Assembly (NCBI GenBank): GCA_016219325.1
Contig: JACRNH010000024.1
Location: 1,789-65,788, forward strand
Length of the DNA stretch: 64,000 bases
Source of the DNA: Candidatus Collierbacteria bacterium
GTDB taxonomy: Bacteria; Patescibacteriota; Microgenomatia; UBA1400; JACPES01
Direction: 5' to 3'
In this document: piece after piece, positions 2,737 through 61,027 of the stretch
Position numbering within the stretch: the stretch's first letter is position 1
Layout: each line of letters starts with the position of its first letter
Program-made: the position numbers and the translations under genes
The notes under the pieces: generated by a model
The model's input: only the letters and a program-made list of their open reading frames with translations
Databases searched by the model: none
What the model was told of the DNA's origin: nothing

Positions 2737-5700
2737 ATGTTTCGCACTCTACCAACAAGACAGTACTGGGGCAAAACTAATTTGCCCTTACCAGATTTAG
2801 ATTTATTGTCAGTTCAAAAAGAGTCTTATCAACACTTTTTAACTGAAGGAATTTCTTGGGCCCTTTCGGAGGCTTCTCCAATTACCGATCCTTCAAAAAA
2901 AATGTGGCAGTTGATTTTTGGGAAACATCAGTTGGGAAAACCAAAAATTACGGTTGAAGAAGCACTGACAAAAGGCTTGACTTACGATGCGCCATTAACT
3001 GCAGAAGCTACTTTAACTAATATAAAGACTAATGAGACTTTGATAGAAGAAGTCTTTTTGGGGGACATCCCGGTAATGACGGATATTGGTACTTTTGTGA
3101 TTGCCGGAGTAGAGCGCTGTGTTGTTAATCAATTAGTCAGATCTCCTGGTGTGTTTTTTACCAGTGATGTTGACCAACCTTCCGGTCGAAATTTATTCAT
3201 TGCGGAATTAAGGCCGATTAGGGGATCATGGTTGGAATTTAGCGTTAGCCGAAATGATGTGATTACCGTAAAAGTTGATAGAGGAAGGAAAATTCCGGTC
3301 ACTGTATTACTAAAATCTATGGGCTATGTTGCTGATGAGCAGATCACGGGATTATTTAAAGATGTTGATATCGATCCTGACCATCATTATATTTTTAGCA
3401 CCATTAGCAGAGATCAGACAAAAACGAAGGAAGAAGCTCTAGTCGAATTTTATGAAAAAATCAGACCTGGGGAACCGGCTGTTTTAGAAAATGCCAGATC
3501 GCTTTTTTATGAATCTTTCTTTGATCCTAAAAGATATGATATTGGTGAAGTTGGTAGGTATAAATTAAACCGCCGTCTTGGCTTATCTCAGCCATTGACA
3601 CGAGATTATTGGGTATTAACTCCGGACGATTTTATCGCGGTTATTAAAACTTTAATTAAACTCCAAAGGGGGATCGGGGTGGCAGATGACATAGACCATT
3701 TAGCCAATAGAAGAGTTAGAAGGGTTGGAGAATTGGTTCACCAGACTGCTTTTAGAGTTGGTCTATTGAGATTAGAAAGATCAATTTCAGAAAAGATGGC
3801 ATTTGCAAAACCAGGAGAACTTCCAGGTCCGGCTGCATTGGTTAATGCTAGACCTATAATTGCCGTAGTCTCCGAATTTTTTAAGAGGAATCGATTATCT
3901 ACAATATTAGATCAAACCAATCCTCTTTCTGAAATTGATAATTTAAGAAGATTGTCAGTAATGGGGCCAGGTGGAGTAACAAAGGAAAGGGCCAGTTTTT
4001 CAATGAGAGATATAAACTCGAGTCAGTATTCCAGGATTTGTCCGGTTAGATCACCGGAAGGACCAAACATAGGATTGGTCACCTATTTGGCAATTTATGC
4101 CAGAATCAATAAATATGGCTTTATTGAGGCCCCTTATAGAAAAGTCGAAAAAATTACCAAAAATGGTAAAATCAAAATGAAACTAACCAACGAAGTGGTT
4201 TATCTTCAGGCTGACGATGAAGAAAAATATAAGATTACTCATGCCGAAATTCCCATAGATAAACATGGTTGTATTGATGCAGATTGGCTTCCGATCCGCT
4301 ATATGCGTCAATTTACAGAAGGCCCGGTTGAGGAAATTGAATTAGTTGACATAGTTAGTCGTCAAGCGGTGGGCACTTCGGCCAATCTAATTCCTTTTTT
4401 GGCCCATGATGAGGCAAATAGAGCTTTAATGGGAACTCATATGCAATGTCAGGCAGTGCCTTTGGTAAAGACAGAATCTCCTGTTATAGGAACTGGGCTA
4501 GAAGATGTTGTAATTAAGCAGATGAGAAGAGCAATTTATGCAGAAGAAGATGGAGAGATTTTATCTGTTGATGCTTCAGGAGTTGAGTTTAGAGCTAAGA
4601 GTGAAATAAAACATTACACTATTGAGAAATTCAAGCGTTCTTCACAATCAACTTGTTATTCCCAGAAACCAGTTGTTAGGGCTGGCAGCAAAGTTAAGAA
4701 TGGAGATTTATTAATTGATGGTCCGGCTTCAAATAATGGTGAGTTAGCCTTAGGTAAGAATTTAGTAATTGCCTATTCTAATTTTGAAGGTTTGGGATAT
4801 GAAGACGCAATTATTATTTCGGATAAATTAGTTAAGGAAGATTTGCTGACCTCCATACACATAAATGAATATGAGGCCCAATTAATGGATACAAAATTAG
4901 GGCCTGAAGAGTTTACAAAAGATATTCCTAATGTTGGAGAGTCAGAATTAGCCAATCTTGGAGAAGACGGTATTGTAGTGGTCGGAGCTAATGTTAGTCC
5001 AAACGATATTTTGGTTGGCAAGATTGCCCCCAAGGGCGAAACAGAACTAACTGCAGAAGAAAGGTTATTGAGGGCAATATTTGGAGAAAAAGCCAGAGAA
5101 GTCCGTGACACTTCATTAAGAATGCCTCATGGAGAGCAAGGGACTGTTATAGACATTAAAATTTTAGATAGAGAGAAGGAAGATGAGCTAGAACCGGGAG
5201 TTCTTAAGAAGGTTATAGTTAAAGTTGCACAATTGCGTAAAGTGACAGTAGGAGACAAATTGGCTGGACGTCACGGAAATAAAGGCGTTATTAGCAAAGT
5301 CGTTCCTGTCGCCGATATGCCATATTTGTCTGACGGAACAGCAGTAGATATTATTATTAGCCCACTGTCTGTTTTGCAAAGAATGAATGTTGGTCAGTTA
5401 TTAGAAGCGCATTTAGGTTGGGCAGCTAAAATGAAAAATATCAGAATTGCAATTCCGGTTTTCGAATCAATTTCTGAAGATAAAATTTCATCCGAAATGG
5501 AATCTTCAGGTCTTCCTGTTTCAGGAAAAGTCAGATTGATTGACGGAAGGACAGGAGAGCTCTTTAAAGAAGAGACTGTTGTCGGCGTTGCTTACATTAT
5601 GAAATTATCTCATATGGTAGAAGATAAGCTTCATGCTAGGTCAACTGGTCCATACTCTCTAGTTACCCAGCAACCTTTGGGCGGAAAAGCCCAAATGGGA

Positions 5701-6126
5701 GGACAGAGATTAGGAGAAATGGAAGTTTGGGCTTTGGAAGCTCATCGCGCTGCCCATACTTTACAGGAAATGCTAACCATTAAGTCGGATGACGTTGTTG
5801 GGAGAGCCAAGGCTTTTGAAGCTATCGTTAAAGGAGAAGAAATTCCTGAGGCAATGATTCCGGAATCATTTAAAGTCTTAATGAAAGAACTAAATTCTTT
5901 GGTTTTAAATGTCGTTCCGACAAGAATAATTGAAGCTGTTAGCCCTATTACGCCGCAATCTGGAGGGCCAAAAGCTTTACCGATAACTGATGATCAGGCA
6001 GCTGGAGTAACCGATGATTCAATAAGTGTAAGTTTAAATGACAATAGCAACGATAGCTCTGTAAAAAATAAAAAAAAGCAGGATAAAGAGGATAAAAAAG
6101 AAGATAAAAAGGAGACGGTAAAATGA
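2737..6126 (+). CDS. rpoB: DNA-directed RNA polymerase subunit beta
   Basis: Hallmark RpoB segments are present ([10 protein letters not shown]...[10 protein letters not shown], the rifampicin-region motif). The protein is 1129 aa with an unusual K/E/D-rich low-complexity C-terminal tail. Confidence 0.97.
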
Positions 6127-9100
6127 AAACAATGGTTGATTTTCGCGGGTTAAAATTGGAATTGGCATCATCCGAAGTTATCCGGTCGTGGTCTCATGGA
6201 GAAGTAACTAAACCAGAAACAATTAATTACCGGACCTTAAAGCCGGAAAAAGACGGTTTGTTTTGCGAAAGGATATTCGGTCCTACCAGAGACTACGAAT
6301 GTTATTGCGGAAAATACAAGAGGATAAGATTCCGCGGAATCGTCTGCGATAAATGCGGCGTTGAAGTCACACAATCCAGAGTCAGGCGGGAAAGAATGGC
6401 TCATATCAATTTAGCGTCTCCGGTTGTTCATGTTTGGTACTTCAAAGGAGCTCCAAGTCAGCTTTCTCTTTTATTAAATATTTCTCCGAAGAGTCTTACC
6501 AGGGTTATTTATTTTGCCCAATATGTAGTTCTGGACGTTGATAAAAAAGTTGAAGAGCAGGTAATAAAAGATTTAAAAGAAGGTTTGAACAAAAAGCATA
6601 AAGAAATGGATGAAAAAGCCGAAAAAGAAATAGAAGAAGTCAAATCAGCCGGCGAAAAAGAAATTGCGGCTGAAATAAAGAATAATAACGGAGGAAAAGA
6701 ACAATTGGAACTGAAAACTAGAGAAACCCAATTTAGAGTAAAACAGGAAATTGCCAGAATTAGAGAATTGTTAGTTAAAGAGAAAGATACGGCTGCCGAA
6801 GTATTTAAAGCAGTCTTGAATTTGTCCTCCAGGCTGGAAAGAAGATCTTTGCTGACAGAAGACGAATATTTGAAATTGTTAGAATATAACGCTACCGATC
6901 ACTTAAAATTAGGGATGGGAGCAGAGGCTGTAGAAGAGCTTTTGTCGGATTTGAATTTAGTGGCAATCCGCGATCAGCTCCGTCAGGAATTGATTACGGC
7001 TACAGGCGCTGCTAAAACCAAAAAATCAAAACGATTAAGATTAATAGACGGACTAATTGAAGCTAAGATTGACCCCCGCTGGTCTTTGGTAAGAGTTTTA
7101 CCGGTTTTGCCGCCGGACTTGCGGCCAATGGTCCAATTATCCGGAGGCAGATTTGCTACTTCAGACCTTAACGATTTATACCGCCGCGTAATCAACAGGA
7201 ATAATCGTTTAAAGCATCTCATTGATCTGGGCGCTCCGGAAATTATTTTAAGAAATGAAAAAAGAATGCTTCAGGAAGCAGTTGATTCGCTAATTGATTC
7301 TCCGCAATCTCGGACTACCAGACGGCAAACTTTACGCCGCGAGTTGAAGTCCTTGTCAGAAATGTTGCGCGGAAAACAAGGCCGGTTTAGGCAAAATCTT
7401 TTAGGAAAAAGAGTTGATTATTCAGGCCGTTCCGTGATTGTGGTTGGTCCTGAATTAAAACTTAATCAATGCGGTTTGCCAAAAGATATGGCGCTAGAAA
7501 TGTTTAAGCCTTTCGTTTTAAGAGAATTAATTTCTCAAGGGATAAGTCCTAATGTCCGTTCGGCTAAGGCGGCTTTGGAAAGAAGGAGTCCGGAAGTTTA
7601 TGACATATTAGAAAAAATTACTAAAGATCATCCTGTTTTGCTTAACCGCGCTCCGACTTTGCATAAATTAGGAATTCAAGCCTTCTATCCGATTTTAATT
7701 GAAGGCAGCGCTATCAGAATTCACCCCTGTGTTTGTTCGGGCTATAACGCAGATTTTGACGGTGATCAAATGGCCGTTCATGTTCCCCTGTCGGTTCATG
7801 CTCAAGAAGAAGCCGCATCCATTATGATGCCGGAGCGTAATTTATTAAAGCCTTCCAGCGGGACCCCGATTACCGTTCCGAATAAGGAAATGGCGATGGG
7901 ATGTTATTATTTGACGTCTTATGACCCTGCTCTAAAATTAAGCAACACTGTTTTCTCCGGTAAAGAAGAAGTAATGACGGCTTTGCAAAATAACTTTATT
8001 GAGTATCGTCAGCCGATCATGGTCAGAATTGAAGGAAAAATTATTGAAACTACCGCCGGAAGGATTATTTTTAACCGCGCTTTGCCGGACAACGTGCCGT
8101 TTATGAACCGGGCGATTACCGCCGGAGCGATTCAGGATTTGGTCAGAGAAGCCATTGGCAAATTTAGTATTGAAGATACGGTTAAAATTATTGATTCCAT
8201 TAAAGAAGTCGGATTTAACGCCGCCACCATTTCCGGATTATCGGTTTCCGTAAGCGATTGTGTGATTATTCCCGGAAAAGATGATCTTATTAATGACGCT
8301 AATCAACGGGCTGTTCAAATTGAGCAGAATTTTGATACCGGATTGATTACTAATGAAGAACGCCGCAGGCTGACCAATCAGTTGTGGATGGAAACTACGG
8401 ATGATATTGCCGAAAAGACATGGAATTCGTTGGGTGAAAATAATGCGGTTAAAATTATCATTGATTCAGGCGGTACCAGGGCTAGCCGGGATCAGGTTAA
8501 ACAACTTTCGGCTATGAGAGGACTGGTGGTTGATCCGCTAGGCAACATCGTGGAACTGCCGACAAAATCCAATTTCAGACAGGGGTTGTCGGTGTTTGAA
8601 TATGTCACCAGTACCAGGGGATCCAGAAAGGGTTTAACAGATTCAGCTCTGAAGACTGCCGATGCCGGTTATTTGACCCGGAGATTGGTTGACGTTACCC
8701 ATGACGTAATTGTCAGAAGCGATGATTGCGGTACCGAGGGCGGCCTAACAATTTCCAAAACCAACCGCCGCGGGGACCAGTTTATTAAAAGAACTATAGG
8801 CCGGGTTTTAGCTGAAGATGTGCAGGACGGTAAAAAAATAATTGCCAAACGCGGTGATTTAATCGACGAACAAGTCCAGAAATTGTTATTGGGAGTTGGA
8901 GTGGAATCAATAGTTGTTAGGTCACCGTTGACCTGCGTTTTGCCTTACGGAATTTGCAAAATGTGTTACGGTTGGGATTTCGGACAAAGAAAACTGGCGG
9001 AGTTAGGTTTCCCGGCCGGAGTAGTTGCCGCCCAATCAATCGGAGAACCGGGAACTCAATTGACAATGCGGATTAAGCATACCGGAGGTATCGTCGGTTT

Positions 9101-9815
9101 GGACGTTACCCAAGGCTTGCCCCGGGTTGAAGAATTGTTTGAAGCCAGAACTCCCAAAATGTTGGCCCCGATTGCCGGAATCGCCGGAAAGGTTGAAATT
9201 AAAGAAATTGACCGTGGAATTATGATTAAAATTTCCGGTAAAGACGGGATTGAAGAAAAGCACTTGGTTTCGGCCACTGCCCAACTTCAGATTCAGAACG
9301 GCCAGCAGGTTCCGGCCGGCTGGCAAATGGCCACAGGCACTTTGGATGTTGATCAACTGGTAGAGATTAAAGGTGTCCGTGAAGCCCAGGAATATCTGAT
9401 TCACGAAATTCAAACAGTTTACGAATCTCAAGGAATTCCGATTAACGACAAGCATTTTGAAGTTATAGTCAGAAAAATGAGCGATAAGGCCAGAATAACC
9501 GATCCGGGATCCACCGCCTTTTTGCACGGCGAATTAGTCGATTCGGTGACTTTGAATACCACTAATGCTCAAGTGATGGCTTCAGGCGGAAAACCTGCAG
9601 CAGTCACTCAAGTGATTTTGGGGATTACCCGGGCCAGCCTTTATACCCATTCATGGTTATCGGCGGCCTCATTTATTGAAACCACCAAAGTCTTAACCGA
9701 AGCCGCATTGGAAGGCAAGGAAGACCCGCTATTGGGATTAAAAGAAAACGTGATTATCGGCAGGCTGATTCCTACTTCCGAAGACCGCGCCGCCATCCCC
9801 GCGTCCCAGGGTTGA
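6123..9815 (+). CDS. rpoC: DNA-directed RNA polymerase subunit beta'
   Basis: The catalytic motif [14 protein letters not shown] and the zinc-binding cysteines [18 protein letters not shown] are present. The start overlaps the rpoB stop (ATGA). Confidence 0.97.
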
Positions 9816-9848
9816 CAGTTATCTTTTTACCAGATACAGTTGTAAGCA

Positions 9849-10514
9849 ATGAAAAATCCATTTTTTTGGGGACTGATTTTAATGGGAATAGTTTTTGCAA
9901 TATCATCCAAAACAATTTATGCCGTTGCAAAGCCACGTTTATATCTTGACCCGGCTGCGGATAGCGTTGAATCCGGATCGCAATTAACGCTTAATTTATC
10001 AATAGATGCCGGGGCTAAATCGGTAGTTGCTGCAGACGCAAAAATTTCTTTTCCGAAAGCCAAGCTGGAAGTTGTTTCTGTTAAAGTCGGAACATATTTT
10101 GATTCCATCAGTAAAATTATCGGAAATCAAACCGGGAATCTGGAAATTCACGCGTACAGTAAAGCTCAAGGCGAAACAAAAACAGGAGCAGGCGTCTTGG
10201 CTGTAATAACTTTTAAATCTTTATCTCCGGGTTCGGCAATCATTGATTTAATTTGTGTTGACGGAAGCACCACCGATAGCAATATCGCGGATGCGTCCGG
10301 AAACGATATTATTGATTGTTCACAAACCGCCGGGTCTGAAATTGTGGTTGTTCAAGCCGGAGCTGAAGCGGCCGTTGCCGCGACTCCGACGCCTAAACCT
10401 ACTAGTCTGCCGAAAGCCGGAAATATGACTCCATCTTTAATGCTGATGGCGGTTGGATCTTTAAGCCTGATTATTGGTTTTTCCGTCCTAGCTTTTCAAA
10501 AAGAACCGGCATGA
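9849..10514 (+). CDS. Secreted/anchored surface protein with a cohesin-like beta-sandwich domain and a C-terminal LPKAG + TM sorting-signal-like tail
   Basis: It has an N-terminal signal/TM segment. The middle segment shows a cohesin-like pattern (ISFPKAKLEVVSVKVGTYFD...GVLAVITFKSL). The C-terminus is 'SLPKAGN' + hydrophobic segment + QKEPA. Confidence 0.45.
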   Translation: MKNPFFWGLILMGIVFAISSKTIYAVAKPRLYLDPAADSVESGSQLTLNLSIDAGAKSVVAADAKISFPKAKLEVVSVKVGTYFDSISKIIGNQTGNLEIHAYSKAQGETKTGAGVLAVITFKSLSPGSAIIDLICVDGSTTDSNIADASGNDIIDCSQTAGSEIVVVQAGAEAAVAATPTPKPTSLPKAGNMTPSLMLMAVGSLSLIIGFSVLAFQKEPA

Positions 10515-10825
10515 AAAGAAAACAAATATCTGCAGTCGCGTTGTTATCTTTATTATTGGGAGCTGGTCTGGCCGGCGGGCTATATGTGATTAATACCCCG
10601 ACGAAAATCGCCCCTAGAGCCGTATCTCCTGCTCTAATTAACCAATTATCTCCGGCTAAACCAACAACGGAATCTTCTCCTTCGCCGGCAGTAACTTCTG
10701 TTAAATCCCGGTTATCGGAGCAGGCCATAATTGACGCTTTCGGAACGGCCGCAACAGAATACGATCTCAACCAGGACGGCATCGTTAATACCCTAGATTT
10801 ATCTGAATTCAGGAAAAACCATTAA
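10511..10825 (+). CDS. Small secreted protein with a single dockerin-type calcium-binding repeat
   Basis: It has a signal peptide and an S/P-rich linker. The C-terminal 'DLNQDGIVNTLDLSEF' matches the dockerin repeat consensus DxNxDGxVNxxDxxxL. It overlaps the upstream gene by 4 nt. Confidence 0.45.
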   Translation: MKRKQISAVALLSLLLGAGLAGGLYVINTPTKIAPRAVSPALINQLSPAKPTTESSPSPAVTSVKSRLSEQAIIDAFGTAATEYDLNQDGIVNTLDLSEFRKNH

Positions 10826-10849
10826 TTCGCCTCTAAAATATTTCTTCTT

Positions 10850-10885
10850 TGTCATTCCGTGCTTGACACGGAATCTATACAAATA
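10850..10885. repeat. Family-A hairpin repeat (TGTCATTCC-stem-loop-GGAATCTATACAAATA)
   Basis: tgtcattccGTGCTTGACACggaatctatacaaata lies between the convergent genes 10511(+) and 10909(-). Eleven or more related copies occur in the window. Confidence 0.8.
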
Positions 10886-10908
10886 TTTATCTAGATTCTA
10901 GAATTACT

Positions 10909-18069: not shown

Positions 18070-18984
18070 ATGAAATTGCGTTTTACCACATTTCTACTTC
18101 TTCAATTTTTATTTCTTTTTATTCTTGTCCCTAAAGTTCAAGCATTATGGTTAGTTGATCCATCCGGCCGATTGATAAAAATGGATTCCAATGGTCAGGT
18201 TTTGGGTGATGAAGATCAGGGTCAAAGATCAGTTGGAAGAAATGAAGTCAGAAGCGAAACAAAAATGGAAGTCAGAAATGAAGAGAAAAGAACAGAAGTT
18301 AAATCTTTGGACGCCAACAAGGAAAAGATTGAAATAAAATCAGGTGAAAACAAAAGAGAGTTTGAAAGTAAGGGCATGAAAATAAAGCTTGATCAGAAAA
18401 ATGGCGAGTTGAAGATGAAAACAAAAAATGAATTGACCGGCGAGGAGACCGAAATAGAGACTAAGATGGAGAAAAGGGGAAAACCGGAATTGCCGGAAGT
18501 TGAAAACGAAGTTAATGATAAGACTGAAACCGAAGTTCTGAAAATCAAGGACCGGGAAGATAAGGATGAAATTAAGATTAAAACCAAAAACGGAGAATTC
18601 GTCATTGATAGAAATAGGGTCGGAGCCACCACAAATTTTCCGCTATCGGTGGATTCTTCAACAAATATTTTGACTGTGACCACTCCGGCCGGAGAGAAAC
18701 AGGTAACGGTTTTGCCGGATCAGGCAGTTCAAAATATGCTATCGAGGAACATTATTGACCAAGTTTCCGGCCAGGATGCTATCGATTTATCCAGCCGGGT
18801 GAAGATGAGCCAGAAATCAGACGGATCATTGGTTTATGAAGTAGAAGGCGAAAAGCAGGAAAAACTATTCGGCCTGATGCCGTTGAAATTCAAGAAAACC
18901 GCGGTAGTGTCAGTCGAAACCGGAGAGCTTCTAGAAACTAAGGAATCCTTCACCGACAAACTCCTTGGCCTGATTTCGTTCTAA
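18070..18984 (+). CDS. Secreted K/E-rich low-complexity protein (hypothetical)
   Basis: It has a signal peptide, repetitive KxEVxxE blocks and a C-terminal globular part. Confidence 0.5.
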   Translation: MKLRFTTFLLLQFLFLFILVPKVQALWLVDPSGRLIKMDSNGQVLGDEDQGQRSVGRNEVRSETKMEVRNEEKRTEVKSLDANKEKIEIKSGENKREFESKGMKIKLDQKNGELKMKTKNELTGEETEIETKMEKRGKPELPEVENEVNDKTETEVLKIKDREDKDEIKIKTKNGEFVIDRNRVGATTNFPLSVDSSTNILTVTTPAGEKQVTVLPDQAVQNMLSRNIIDQVSGQDAIDLSSRVKMSQKSDGSLVYEVEGEKQEKLFGLMPLKFKKTAVVSVETGELLETKESFTDKLLGLISF

Positions 18985-20241: not shown

Positions 20242-20514
20242 CTAAAGGTATTTATATTCTAATTCTTTTAGGATTTCTTTAAGTTGAATTTTAAGCTCTC
20301 CTCGTCCATTCCCACCCTTTAAGTATTTTTCCCGTCGTTTGGCATCTAGCTCTTTCTCATATGCTTCATAATAAATCAGTTTAAGTGGCCGTCTATGTTT
20401 GGTCGCCTTAACAAATCCGTTGCTATGTGCCTTAAAACGAGATTTCAAGTCTGGAGAAAATCCGGTATATAACTCTTTGTCCTTTTCTGAAAAAAGAATA
20501 TAGACGTAATACAT
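20242..20514 (-). CDS. GIY-YIG nuclease-superfamily protein (YhbQ/UPF0213-like)
   Basis: MYYVYILFSEKDKELYTGFSPDLKSRFKAHSNG...RREKYLK is the canonical GIY-YIG pattern. Confidence 0.8.
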   Translation of the reverse strand: MYYVYILFSEKDKELYTGFSPDLKSRFKAHSNGFVKATKHRRPLKLIYYEAYEKELDAKRREKYLKGGNGRGELKIQLKEILKELEYKYL

Positions 20515-20535
20515 CTATATCTAGTGTAGCAAAAA

Positions 20536-20578
20536 TAAACGTATGGTGATCGAGCTGAGCTCGATAATCACCAAGCTA
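20536..20578 (-). terminator. Hairpin + T-tract downstream of tRNA-Glu (minus strand)
   Basis: The minus-strand reading ggtgattatcgagctcagctcgatcacc is followed by atacgtttatttttg. Confidence 0.4.
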
Positions 20579-20582
20579 AGCT

Positions 20583-20657
20583 TGGTGACCCCACCGGGAG
20601 TCGAACCCGAGTTTACAGGATGAGAACCTGCCGTCCTAGCCATTAGACGATGGGGCC
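20583..20657 (-). tRNA. tRNA-Glu (anticodon CUC), CCA encoded
   Basis: Manual fold: acceptor GGCCCCA/TGGGGTC, D-arm GTCT-AATGGCTA-GGAC, anticodon loop TTCTCAT, T-loop TTCGACT. The sequence has the tRNA-Glu-like CCCCaTCGTCTAatGGCtAGGAC signature. Confidence 0.8.
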
Positions 20658-20736
20658 TGTTTCTAAACTATGCAGAATTATATCAATCCCTAGGTTATAA
20701 TTCTTATTGTCTTTATAATGTTTATCGCTTATAAAC

Positions 20737-20807
20737 TGCGGGATCTGCTAATGGTAGGCAAGCTGGCTCTGAACCAGTAAATCTAGGTTCGATTCCTAGT
20801 CCCGCAA
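20737..20807 (+). tRNA. tRNA-Gln (anticodon CUG), U1-A72, no encoded CCA
   Basis: Manual fold: acceptor TGCGGGA/TCCCGCA, anticodon stem GCTGG/CCAGT, loop CTCTGAA, T-arm CTAGG-TTCGATT-CCTAG. Confidence 0.8.
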
Positions 20808-20820
20808 CAAATCTTTTATT

Positions 20821-60073: not shown

Positions 60074-61027
60074 ATGAATCAAAAATCACAAATAATTTTA
60101 TATCAGACACCCGACGGTCAGTTGAAAGTCCAAGTAACACTGGAGAAAGAAACCGTTTGGTTGAATCAAGACCAGATATCACAGCTTTTCCAAACAGATA
60201 GGACTAATGTTTTTAAACACATAAAAAATATTTTTGAGACTGGAGAATTAGATCAAACTACAACTTGTGCAAAATTTGCACAACATCTACCAGACGGAAG
60301 AGTTTATAGCGTACTTCATTACAATTTAGACGTAATAATTTCAGTTGGATATCGGGTAAATTCTTATCGCGGTACGCAATTTCGGATTTGGGCAACTAAA
60401 ACTTTAAAAGAATACATGATTAAAGGTTTCGTGATGGATGATGAAAGGTTATCTCAAGGAAAAACAGGAGATAGATTTAATTATTATGATGAACTTTTAG
60501 AACGTGTTCGGGCAATCAGAGCATCGGAAAAGAATTTATACGAAAAAGTAAAAGAAATTTTTGCCACCAGCGTGGACTATAACTCTAAAACAAAAGACGC
60601 CATTAGATTTTTCGCCACTGTCCAAAATAAGTTTCACTACGCGATTACCGGATACACCGCGGCGGAGCTAATTATTAAAAGAGCCAGCGGAAGGCAAAAA
60701 AACTTGGGAATGACTAATTGGAAGGGTAAAAGCATTGTCAAAAGTGACGCGTTAATTGCCAAAAATTACATGCTGGAGAGAGAACTCCGTCAACTGTATC
60801 TGTTAGTAGAGCAGTTTTTATCTTTTGCCGAACTTCAGATTGAGAGAGAAAGACCGATGTATATGAGCGATTGGAGAGAAGCGCTTGACGAGTTTTTAAC
60901 ATTAAATAGGTTGGAATTGCTGAAGGGAAAGGGTGGAATATCGCGTCAGAAGATGGAAAAGTTTATTAGGAATGAATTAAAGAAATATAAAAAAGTTTTA
61001 CGGTTGTCTTTAAGGAAAAGAATATGA
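60074..61027 (+). CDS. RhuM-family protein (virulence/defence-island associated, KilA-N-like DNA-binding)
   Basis: QIILYQTPDGQLKVQVTLEKETVWLNQDQISQLFQTDRTNVFKHIKNIFETGEL is the RhuM-family N-terminal pattern. Confidence 0.7.
   Translation: MNQKSQIILYQTPDGQLKVQVTLEKETVWLNQDQISQLFQTDRTNVFKHIKNIFETGELDQTTTCAKFAQHLPDGRVYSVLHYNLDVIISVGYRVNSYRGTQFRIWATKTLKEYMIKGFVMDDERLSQGKTGDRFNYYDELLERVRAIRASEKNLYEKVKEIFATSVDYNSKTKDAIRFFATVQNKFHYAITGYTAAELIIKRASGRQKNLGMTNWKGKSIVKSDALIAKNYMLERELRQLYLLVEQFLSFAELQIERERPMYMSDWREALDEFLTLNRLELLKGKGGISRQKMEKFIRNELKKYKKVLRLSLRKRI

Follow-up and report, generated by a model that had tools for sequence, protein, structure and literature searches.

Protein A and the layout of the locus

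The stretch analysed here, a window of 64,000 nucleotides from a Candidatus Collierbacteria metagenome-assembled genome, carries directly downstream of rpoC two small genes that we call A and B. Gene A (9849–10514) encodes a protein of 221 amino acids (aa) and gene B (10511–10825) a protein of 104 aa, both on the forward strand, as are all features of A and B given below. The two products are 100% identical to MBI5356949.1 (HZB78_05080) and MBI5356950.1 (HZB78_05085), respectively, each annotated as 'hypothetical protein' and encoded on a contig of 124,693 bp. In our analyses, A appears as an exported single-cohesin protein with a sortase-type C-terminal signal, and B as an N-terminal anchor or signal followed by a linker and a one-calcium mini-dockerin. 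Homologues were grouped into 38 clusters for A and 32 clusters for B with domain-like patterns of conservation, and both can therefore be taken as real genes.

A is preceded by rpoB (2737–6126) and rpoC (6123–9815), with 33 nt between the end of rpoC and the start of A. A and B overlap by 4 nt, as stated in the first-pass annotation of this DNA; the shared bases are ATGA, and the start codon of B lies inside the stop of A. Downstream of B, rmuC is found on the opposite strand in convergent orientation. We scanned the open reading frames (ORFs) of at least 60 aa in the six frames of the window for motifs, and 49 window ORFs with Pfam. The LPx[TA]G motif followed by a transmembrane tail occurs only once, in A, and a dockerin-type calcium loop only once, in B.

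The N-terminus of A (residues 1–26, 9849–9926) was read by inspection as a Sec-type signal peptide, with a short MK n-region, a 14-residue hydrophobic core FFWGLILMGIVFAI and a putative cleavage site AVA|K; a helix is predicted at residues 4–22. This segment is poorly conserved, with a mean majority-residue fraction of 0.49 versus 0.70 in the domain that follows, a behaviour that would be that of ordinary signal peptides.

Residues 29–168 (9933–10352) are predicted to form a cohesin beta-sandwich. The Pfam Cohesin profile (PF00963) matches residues 39–144 with 35.5 bits, above the gathering score of 24.1 (E-value 1.4e-8), and precomputed matches to the same profile exist for homologues of A. 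An AlphaFold2 model built with 24 homologues shows an all-beta sandwich with a predicted local distance difference test score (pLDDT) above 90 over residues 30–170. When this model was compared to the PDB with Foldseek, 90 matches were obtained at an E-value of at most 1e-3, the best 50 of which are all cohesins. The best match is 6kgf_C (C. acetobutylicum CohA2; E-value 3e-10, target-normalised TM-score 0.74), and the closest single-domain cohesins give target-normalised TM-scores of 0.7–0.76. The non-cellulosomal cohesin of A. fulgidus (2xdh) ranks fourth (E-value 4.8e-9), and the sortase-anchored ScaE cohesin (2zf9) is matched with an E-value of 3e-7. The nearest folds are thus those of type I and archaeal non-cellulosomal cohesins (6kgf, 2xdh, 2vn5). 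Sequence identity between A and solved cohesins is 11–19%, and the sequence profile of A retrieved no PDB sequence at E-values up to 1. The A family is therefore remote from any solved cohesin, and the assignment rests on Pfam and on the fold. Profile and model nevertheless agree in predicting a cohesin domain, and the cohesin-like segment proposed in the first-pass annotation can be retained.

Invariant features among A homologues include AADAK, H101, Y103, the Cys136/Cys157 pair and the loop GSTTDSNIA..G.D. The corresponding region, residues 139–158 (10263–10322), is an invariant Asp/Asn/Ser-rich loop (GSTTDSNIAD..GNDIIDC) bracketed by both invariant cysteines. It is modelled with confidence, with little regular secondary structure, and in the model it looks like a metal-binding or ligand-binding site.

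The cohesin is followed by an Ala/Pro/Thr-rich linker (residues 169–186, 10353–10406) with low pLDDT and a conserved TPTPxP motif, which is a putative wall-spanning segment. The pentapeptide LPKAG (residues 187–191, 10407–10421) comes next, 30 residues before the C-terminus. The end of the protein (residues 192–221, 10422–10511) consists of a hydrophobic transmembrane segment of 24 residues (192–215; predicted helix 195–216) and the short tail QKEPA. L187, P188, A190 and G191 are invariant in 24 A homologues, down to 38% identity, the variable position being occupied by K, Q, V, A or R. In a sister family that is 30% identical to A, an [IL]PVTG motif and its hydrophobic helix align residue for residue with LPKAG and the helix of A (BLASTP, 2e-23). 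LPxAG has been documented as a variant sortase-A motif in Staphylococcus aureus and Streptococcus uberis (PMC3436756; PMC2657157). Because LPxAG is invariant, aligned with the [IL]PVTG of the sister family and known as a sortase-A variant, we interpret the tail of A as a probable sortase-type signal, with caveats on the charge of the tail, the score of the corresponding family model and the sortase itself that are detailed below. The sorting-signal architecture described at first pass (LPKAG, hydrophobic helix, short tail) is thus supported, whereas the view of LPKAG as a non-canonical pentapeptide should be abandoned. A tail of the exosortase, archaeosortase or rhombosortase type was also considered for A and rejected, as NCBIfam matches were found only with LPXTG-type models.

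The first-pass annotation had reported no sortase gene in the window. In agreement with this, window ORFs of at least 60 aa contain no [TS]LxTC motif, and Pfam matched none of the 49 ORFs scanned to a sortase family. No other LPx[TA]G protein turned up in the window or in the flanking sequence of 14 loci, and a homology search with the 52-residue sorting-signal tail of A gave no candidate sharing three 5-residue words. The support from outside the window is that a sortase is encoded by Ch65, a Microgenomates genome whose description repeatedly discusses Collierbacteria (PMC7143001).

Protein B and its one-calcium mini-dockerin

The N-terminal part of B (residues 1–37, 10511–10621) comprises MKRKQ, a Gly-rich hydrophobic helix of 22 residues (LLSLLLGAGLAGGLYVI) and a juxtamembrane motif, NTPTKIAPRA. 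It is the best conserved part of the protein, with a mean majority-residue fraction of 0.84, compared to 0.47 in the linker (residues 38–67) and 0.77 in the C-terminal module (residues 68–101). Residues G17, G19, G22, G23, Y25, T29, P30, P35 and A37 are invariant, and a helix is predicted at residues 3–22. This N-terminus is far more conserved than the signal peptide of A (0.84 and 0.49, respectively), and its hydrophobic run of 22 residues has the length of a transmembrane helix. From the length and conservation of the helix, it is more likely to be an uncleaved membrane anchor than a clade-typical signal. The segment described at first pass as the signal peptide of B is thus much better conserved than a plain signal peptide. 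A motif scan for N-termini of the B type across the retrieved loci matched only B orthologues. A type IV pilin signal was rejected, as B contains no motif resembling G|FTLIE. The linker itself (10622–10711) is variable and rich in Ser, Pro and Thr, with a 15-residue insertion in some homologues.

The C-terminal module (residues 68–104, 10712–10822) is made of a helix (SEQAIIDAFGT), a spacer, a calcium loop and an exit helix. The loop, DLNQDGIVNTLD (residues 85–96, 10763–10798), has D1, N3, D5, N9 and D12, that is, all the positions that coordinate calcium in dockerins (1, 3, 5, 9 and 12; PMC4582956). At least 90% of 20 B homologues share D85, N87, D89, G90, N93 and D96, and D85, N87, D89, N93 and D96 are invariant in the alignment of B modules with canonical dockerins. 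The consensus of the unit can be written L[TS]xExhhxAhG[TS]x5DhNxDGxVNxxDL.

We compared a profile of the 20 B homologues to PDB sequences. The top 12 matches are dockerins (best E-value 1.2e-5), and the single unit of B matches both repeats in each of the three best-scoring PDB dockerin chains. EF-hand proteins appeared in this comparison only at E-values above 1, against 1e-5 for dockerins, and a canonical EF-hand was therefore rejected for B. Alignment of B modules with canonical two-repeat dockerins by hhalign gave a probability of 97.3% (E-value 2e-11), with B columns 11–41 placed on template columns 20–53 of 60. In a second alignment with canonical two-repeat dockerins, SEQAIIDAFGT of B falls on the end of dockerin helix 1 (SFIYASWGT), and the loop and helix of B fall on repeat 2. 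B would thus have retained the stretch that runs from the last part of helix 1 through the linker to repeat 2, whereas calcium loop 1 is missing. Of the two Pfam families named in the first-pass annotation, Cohesin matches A above threshold, whereas Dockerin_1 matches B below threshold, over profile positions 29–51 of 57, which correspond to one repeat. Since B fails the Pfam threshold and lacks the two repeats of the family, but passes the tests of homology and of calcium ligands, we classify its C-terminal module from sequence comparison as a dockerin-derived one-calcium mini-dockerin and not as a canonical type I dockerin. The first-pass description of one canonical dockerin repeat therefore stands for the single calcium repeat but not for the word canonical. 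A C. thermocellum dockerin deprived of its first calcium loop, studied by Karpol and colleagues in 2008, reportedly still binds cohesin. Should this be correct, B would presumably be the natural counterpart of that construct.

An exhaustive search with a hidden Markov model of B retrieved 256 representative proteins at an E-value of at most 1e-3, about 10 of which are true B-like small proteins. Many of the other matches are proteins of 300–550 aa that contain 3–4 copies of the unit (LTxEGLxxAWGTDxxxYDLNGDGTVNxxDLLxxL) separated by linkers of about 50 residues. This arrangement as repeated copies on linkers suggests that the mini-dockerin unit is an autonomous module. Several members of this multi-copy family (P0073, P0074, P0078, P0079 and P0081) share a C-terminal domain ending in RYPDGLG(L/V)(D/N)V(I/M)G. 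Their N-termini do not resemble signal peptides, their linkers are of low complexity, and Pfam recognises only Dockerin_1 and EF-hand in them.

Recurrence of the pairing and surroundings of the locus

In all eight of the related loci that were read, which represent five genomic contexts in addition to that of the window, A is followed by B. The pair is located after rpoC in two of them (L001 and L002), after dnaJ in three (L003–L005), beside PIN and nusA genes in L006 and after an AhpC/thioredoxin-like gene in L007; L008 lies on a 588-kb Collierbacteria contig whose flanks carry no annotation. The junction between the two genes is an ATGA overlap in four lineages, an overlap of 8 nt in one and a gap of 75 nt in another. 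A profile search of genome contigs with A retrieved one locus, that of the 588-kb Collierbacteria contig; the patterns used were very specific, and this result says little about distribution.

Scanning metagenomes with the B profile produced six loci, none of which encodes a full-length B, and revealed diverged cassettes. In three of them (L009, L010 and L012), a cohesin gene with an [IL]PVTG motif is followed by a gene for an N-terminal anchor, an FN3 domain, a PT linker and a mini-dockerin, and then by a gene for a secreted GH39 protein. These cassettes extend from 8 to 2634 in L009, from 124 to 2801 in L010 and from 113 to 3362 in L012. Their cohesins have a signal peptide, [IL]PVTG and a transmembrane segment with no charged tail, and murJ is located downstream on the opposite strand. 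L012 carries in addition an N-anchored cohesin gene upstream of the cassette. A different organisation was found in L011 (221–1296), where a 240-aa N-anchored cohesin (Pfam, 29.6 bits) has its own C-terminal single F-hand, GDFNNDNTVDLLDFEIF, and is followed by a gene for a B-like protein of 105 aa. In this locus, cohesin and mini-dockerin are thus found both within one chain and in the adjoining gene.

Because these diverged cassettes show the same pairing, the adjacency of cohesin and mini-dockerin is a recurring unit and not an accident of the window locus. The first-pass proposal that A and B form a functional pair is strengthened at the level of gene order, both by their adjacency in several unrelated contexts and by the variant cassettes. 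On the other hand, the presence of a cohesin-dockerin pair in a reduced genome now looks less unusual than was first suggested, as such modules are common in the metagenome relatives, which apparently belong to other candidate-phyla bacteria.

A perfect 8-bp hairpin (ATTCCGTG-CTTGA-CACGGAAT) is located at 10854–10874, between the convergent genes B and rmuC, with no strand assigned. Folding of the region 10820–10905 gave -13.8 kcal/mol (z -2.24), and the hairpin is a possible bidirectional terminator for B and rmuC. It has no T-run, and a scan for consensus terminators called none. On the other side of the locus, a promoter-like sequence, TTGACA-17-TACAGT (9812–9840), overlaps the rpoC stop just 5' of A; we did not rely on it as a promoter of A, as the leader would be almost nil. 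An antisense ORF (10471–10782) was rejected as a gene, since it faces the conserved frame of B.

Elsewhere in the window, a region of about 40 kb (23818–63520) is mostly occupied by genes for envelope glycans or protein glycosylation, a very high proportion for a genome of small size. It includes BacA, a UDP-glucose dehydrogenase, two GDP-mannose dehydratase/epimerase genes, at least 10 GT2 genes, four PMT_2-type GT-C enzymes (29295, 34822, 36300 and 37604), a GT87, three 'PTPS_related' membrane proteins, a Polysacc_synt_3 flippase and a YfhO-like protein. One could speculate that the Ser/Pro/Thr linkers of A and B are plausible targets of O-glycosylation. Inside the same cluster, a RhuM-family 'virulence protein' gene (60074–61027, 324 bits), which may be an inserted mobile or defence gene, is followed by an ORF of 156 aa that matches no family. 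At the start of the window, directly upstream of rpoB, an ORF (37–2034) matches the C-terminal specificity domain of Type ISP restriction-modification enzymes (253 bits) as well as Eco57I methylase, and probably represents the 3' portion of a longer Type ISP restriction-modification gene truncated at the window edge. A 304-aa protein encoded at 18070–18984 has a signal peptide and a long, highly charged, repetitive Lys/Glu-rich middle part (KMEVRNEEKRTEVK...) with no Pfam match, and may be another surface or secreted protein. Finally, a small GIY-YIG nuclease gene (89 aa) adjoins divergent tRNA-Glu(CTC) and tRNA-Gln(CTG) genes (20242–20808).

A putative membrane-to-wall module and its alternatives

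The analyses described above show which domains A and B contain, that their motifs are invariant, that their genes overlap and that the pairing is conserved. From these observations, we infer that A could be anchored to the cell wall by a sortase and B to the membrane, the two proteins being joined by calcium-dependent docking of the mini-dockerin on the cohesin, an interpretation to which we give an even chance. A and B would be expressed together as the two parts of an envelope module in a monoderm-type candidate-phyla bacterium. A would be exported by the Sec system with removal of its signal peptide. A sortase whose gene lies elsewhere in the genome would then recognise the LPxAG-transmembrane tail of A and link its single cohesin, carried by a Pro/Thr stalk, to peptidoglycan. 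B would be produced concurrently with A owing to the ATGA overlap and inserted by its conserved Gly-rich N-terminal helix, most likely retained as a membrane anchor, so that its flexible Ser/Pro linker could present the mini-dockerin of about 37 residues and one calcium. Since B has no cargo domain, the complex formed upon calcium-dependent docking would itself be the product, either bridging the cytoplasmic membrane and the cell wall non-covalently or providing a docking point at the surface.

Several observations weigh against this interpretation. On the side of A, the NCBIfam model LPXTG_anchor (TIGR01167) scores 12.1 bits for a cutoff of 15.9, the tail QKEPA is barely positive, with one Lys and one Glu, and proteins of the [IL]PVTG sister family lack a charged tail altogether. 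Neither the 64-kb window nor the flanks read at the 14 loci revealed a sortase. On the side of B, the Dockerin_1 score (PF00404) is 17.1 bits for a threshold of 22.9 (E-value 0.0064), and all 20 homologues have a single loop where the dockerin family has two repeats. The AlphaFold2 model of B is poor, with a pLDDT of 57. N-termini resembling that of B and ending in P[KR]A were also found on unrelated exported proteins of related metagenome organisms (P0118, P0151, P0182, P0187 and P0189). The N-terminus of B may therefore be a clade-typical cleaved signal, and if B is cleaved the membrane-to-wall bridge falls. The proposed contact between A and B is moreover deduced from gene linkage. In the clade where positions 17–18 of the mini-dockerin have changed from R-K to D-(Q/L), the cohesin has lost five acidic residues (including D85) and gained K51 and K86, with a net change of +3, which might hint at direct contact. 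As it stems from one evolutionary event, among 11 charge changes that are fixed, we consider this co-variation a lead rather than evidence.

Among known systems, ScaE of Ruminococcus flavefaciens (2zf9, 4iu2/4iu3) resembles A in its organisation: a signal peptide precedes its single cohesin, which is followed by a stalk rich in Thr and Pro and by a sortase signal, and this cohesin is covalently attached to peptidoglycan (PMC3821032). However, ScaE has a type III cohesin that binds the X-dockerin modules of large scaffoldins and of CttA in a plant-fibre-degrading cellulosome, whereas A has an LPxAG motif, no cellulosomal enzymes and, as its linked partner, the cargo-less B of 104 aa. The LPxAG substrates of sortase A in S. 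aureus and S. uberis share with A the pentapeptide followed by a hydrophobic segment, but their tail is clearly positive and their cognate sortase is known. B resembles type I dockerins (PF00404) by its 12-residue loop with D1/N3/D5/N9/D12, by the following helix, where S/T occupies position 10 and R-K positions 17–18, and by a pre-loop segment that matches the last part of helix 1 and the linker between the repeats. It differs from them by its single calcium loop, its length (about 37 residues instead of about 60), its score below the Pfam gathering threshold, and its position at the C-terminus of a protein that contains only an anchor and a linker besides. Cohesin and dockerin modules in organisms with no cellulosome are known from Archaeoglobus fulgidus (2xdh) and Clostridium perfringens (2jh2, 2vo8, 2w1n). 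In contrast to the dedicated, translationally coupled two-gene cassette of A and B, those modules sit inside larger enzymes, toxins and multi-domain proteins. There is no sign of a cellulosome at the locus itself, as the window contains no dockerin-bearing enzyme, B has no catalytic domain and the GH39 protein beside the variant cassette has no dockerin.

A could also work in the manner of ScaE, as an anchoring scaffoldin for canonical two-repeat dockerins on enzymes or adhesins encoded elsewhere, with B being a competitor, a cap or an unrelated co-transcribed calcium-binding membrane peptide. Metagenome relatives that were retrieved with the B profile and share a B-like N-terminus indeed encode large canonical-dockerin proteins with cohesin-like segments (P0182, 965 aa, and P0189, 370 aa; Dockerin_1 34.8–49.3 bits), and a GH39 enzyme adjoins the variant cassette. 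However, this GH39 enzyme bears no dockerin, B is the only dockerin-bearing protein in the 64-kb window, and across five contexts and three types of cassette the cohesin gene constantly has the mini-dockerin gene as its neighbour, in many cases with an overlap. We therefore find the scaffoldin role unlikely. An adhesin role for A, in which its cohesin-like Ig fold would bind a non-dockerin ligand on host cells or a substrate and B would be unrelated, placed next to A by operon packing in a small genome, is the least probable of the alternatives. Candidate-phyla bacteria are episymbionts that need adhesins, and non-cellulosomal dockerins have been suggested to act as such (PMC10066038). Chance packing does not predict, however, that the pairing of cohesin and mini-dockerin would recur in diverged cassettes, nor that the adjacency of A and B would survive at least four rearrangements of the surrounding genes.

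The single loop of B could also be completed by dimerisation. EF-hand-type loops normally occur in pairs, and two B chains could associate through Gly-zipper transmembrane helices (GxGxxGG), their two F-hands forming one two-calcium dockerin-like unit that binds one or two cohesins. The invariant small-xxx-small glycines of a transmembrane helix that is unusually conserved, together with the alignment of the single B unit with repeat 1 and repeat 2 of solved dockerins equally well, are compatible with such a homodimer. Nevertheless, an equivalent of helix 1 is kept before the loop of B, which may fold alone as a two-helix mini-dockerin, and the occurrence of the unit as beads on linkers of about 50 residues in other proteins also suggests autonomy. 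We consider the homodimer improbable.

Beyond the docking of B on A, we tentatively propose, as a more general and rather doubtful idea, that the helix-spacer-calcium loop-helix unit of about 37 residues represents an autonomous class of one-calcium mini-dockerins rather than dockerins that have decayed. Among Collierbacteria and the candidate-phyla bacteria related to them, this class would be paired with a dedicated sortase-anchored cohesin, forming a minimal, calcium-dependent membrane-wall strut with no enzyme cargo.

Non-cellulosomal cohesin and dockerin modules, single-repeat dockerins (e.g. Clocl_2271) and LPxAG signals are each already known. As far as we searched the literature, a dedicated coupled two-gene cassette with a cargo-less one-loop dockerin has not been described, although the survey of Peer et al. 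(2009) may list single-repeat cases. Cellulosomes are the best-known setting of cohesin-dockerin pairs, which have also found wide use as engineering parts. A and B would provide a naturally minimal pair, with a cohesin of 140 residues and a one-calcium dockerin of 37 residues encoded by a coupled two-gene cassette in an ultra-small bacterium that has no cellulosome. If A and B do not bind, the locus is one more non-cellulosomal occurrence of cohesin and dockerin. If they bind, B would be the smallest natural dockerin known to work, and calcium loop 1 would be dispensable in nature and not only in mutants. The envelope and attachment biology of candidate-phyla bacteria is poorly understood, and most of the proteins concerned are annotated as hypothetical, as are A and B. 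Binding would point in these organisms to a structural role for the pair, as a tie between membrane and wall or as a docking site at the surface. Should the strut exist, with the Gly-zipper anchor of B in the cytoplasmic membrane and A in the wall, it would represent a use of cohesin-dockerin chemistry in organising the cell envelope.

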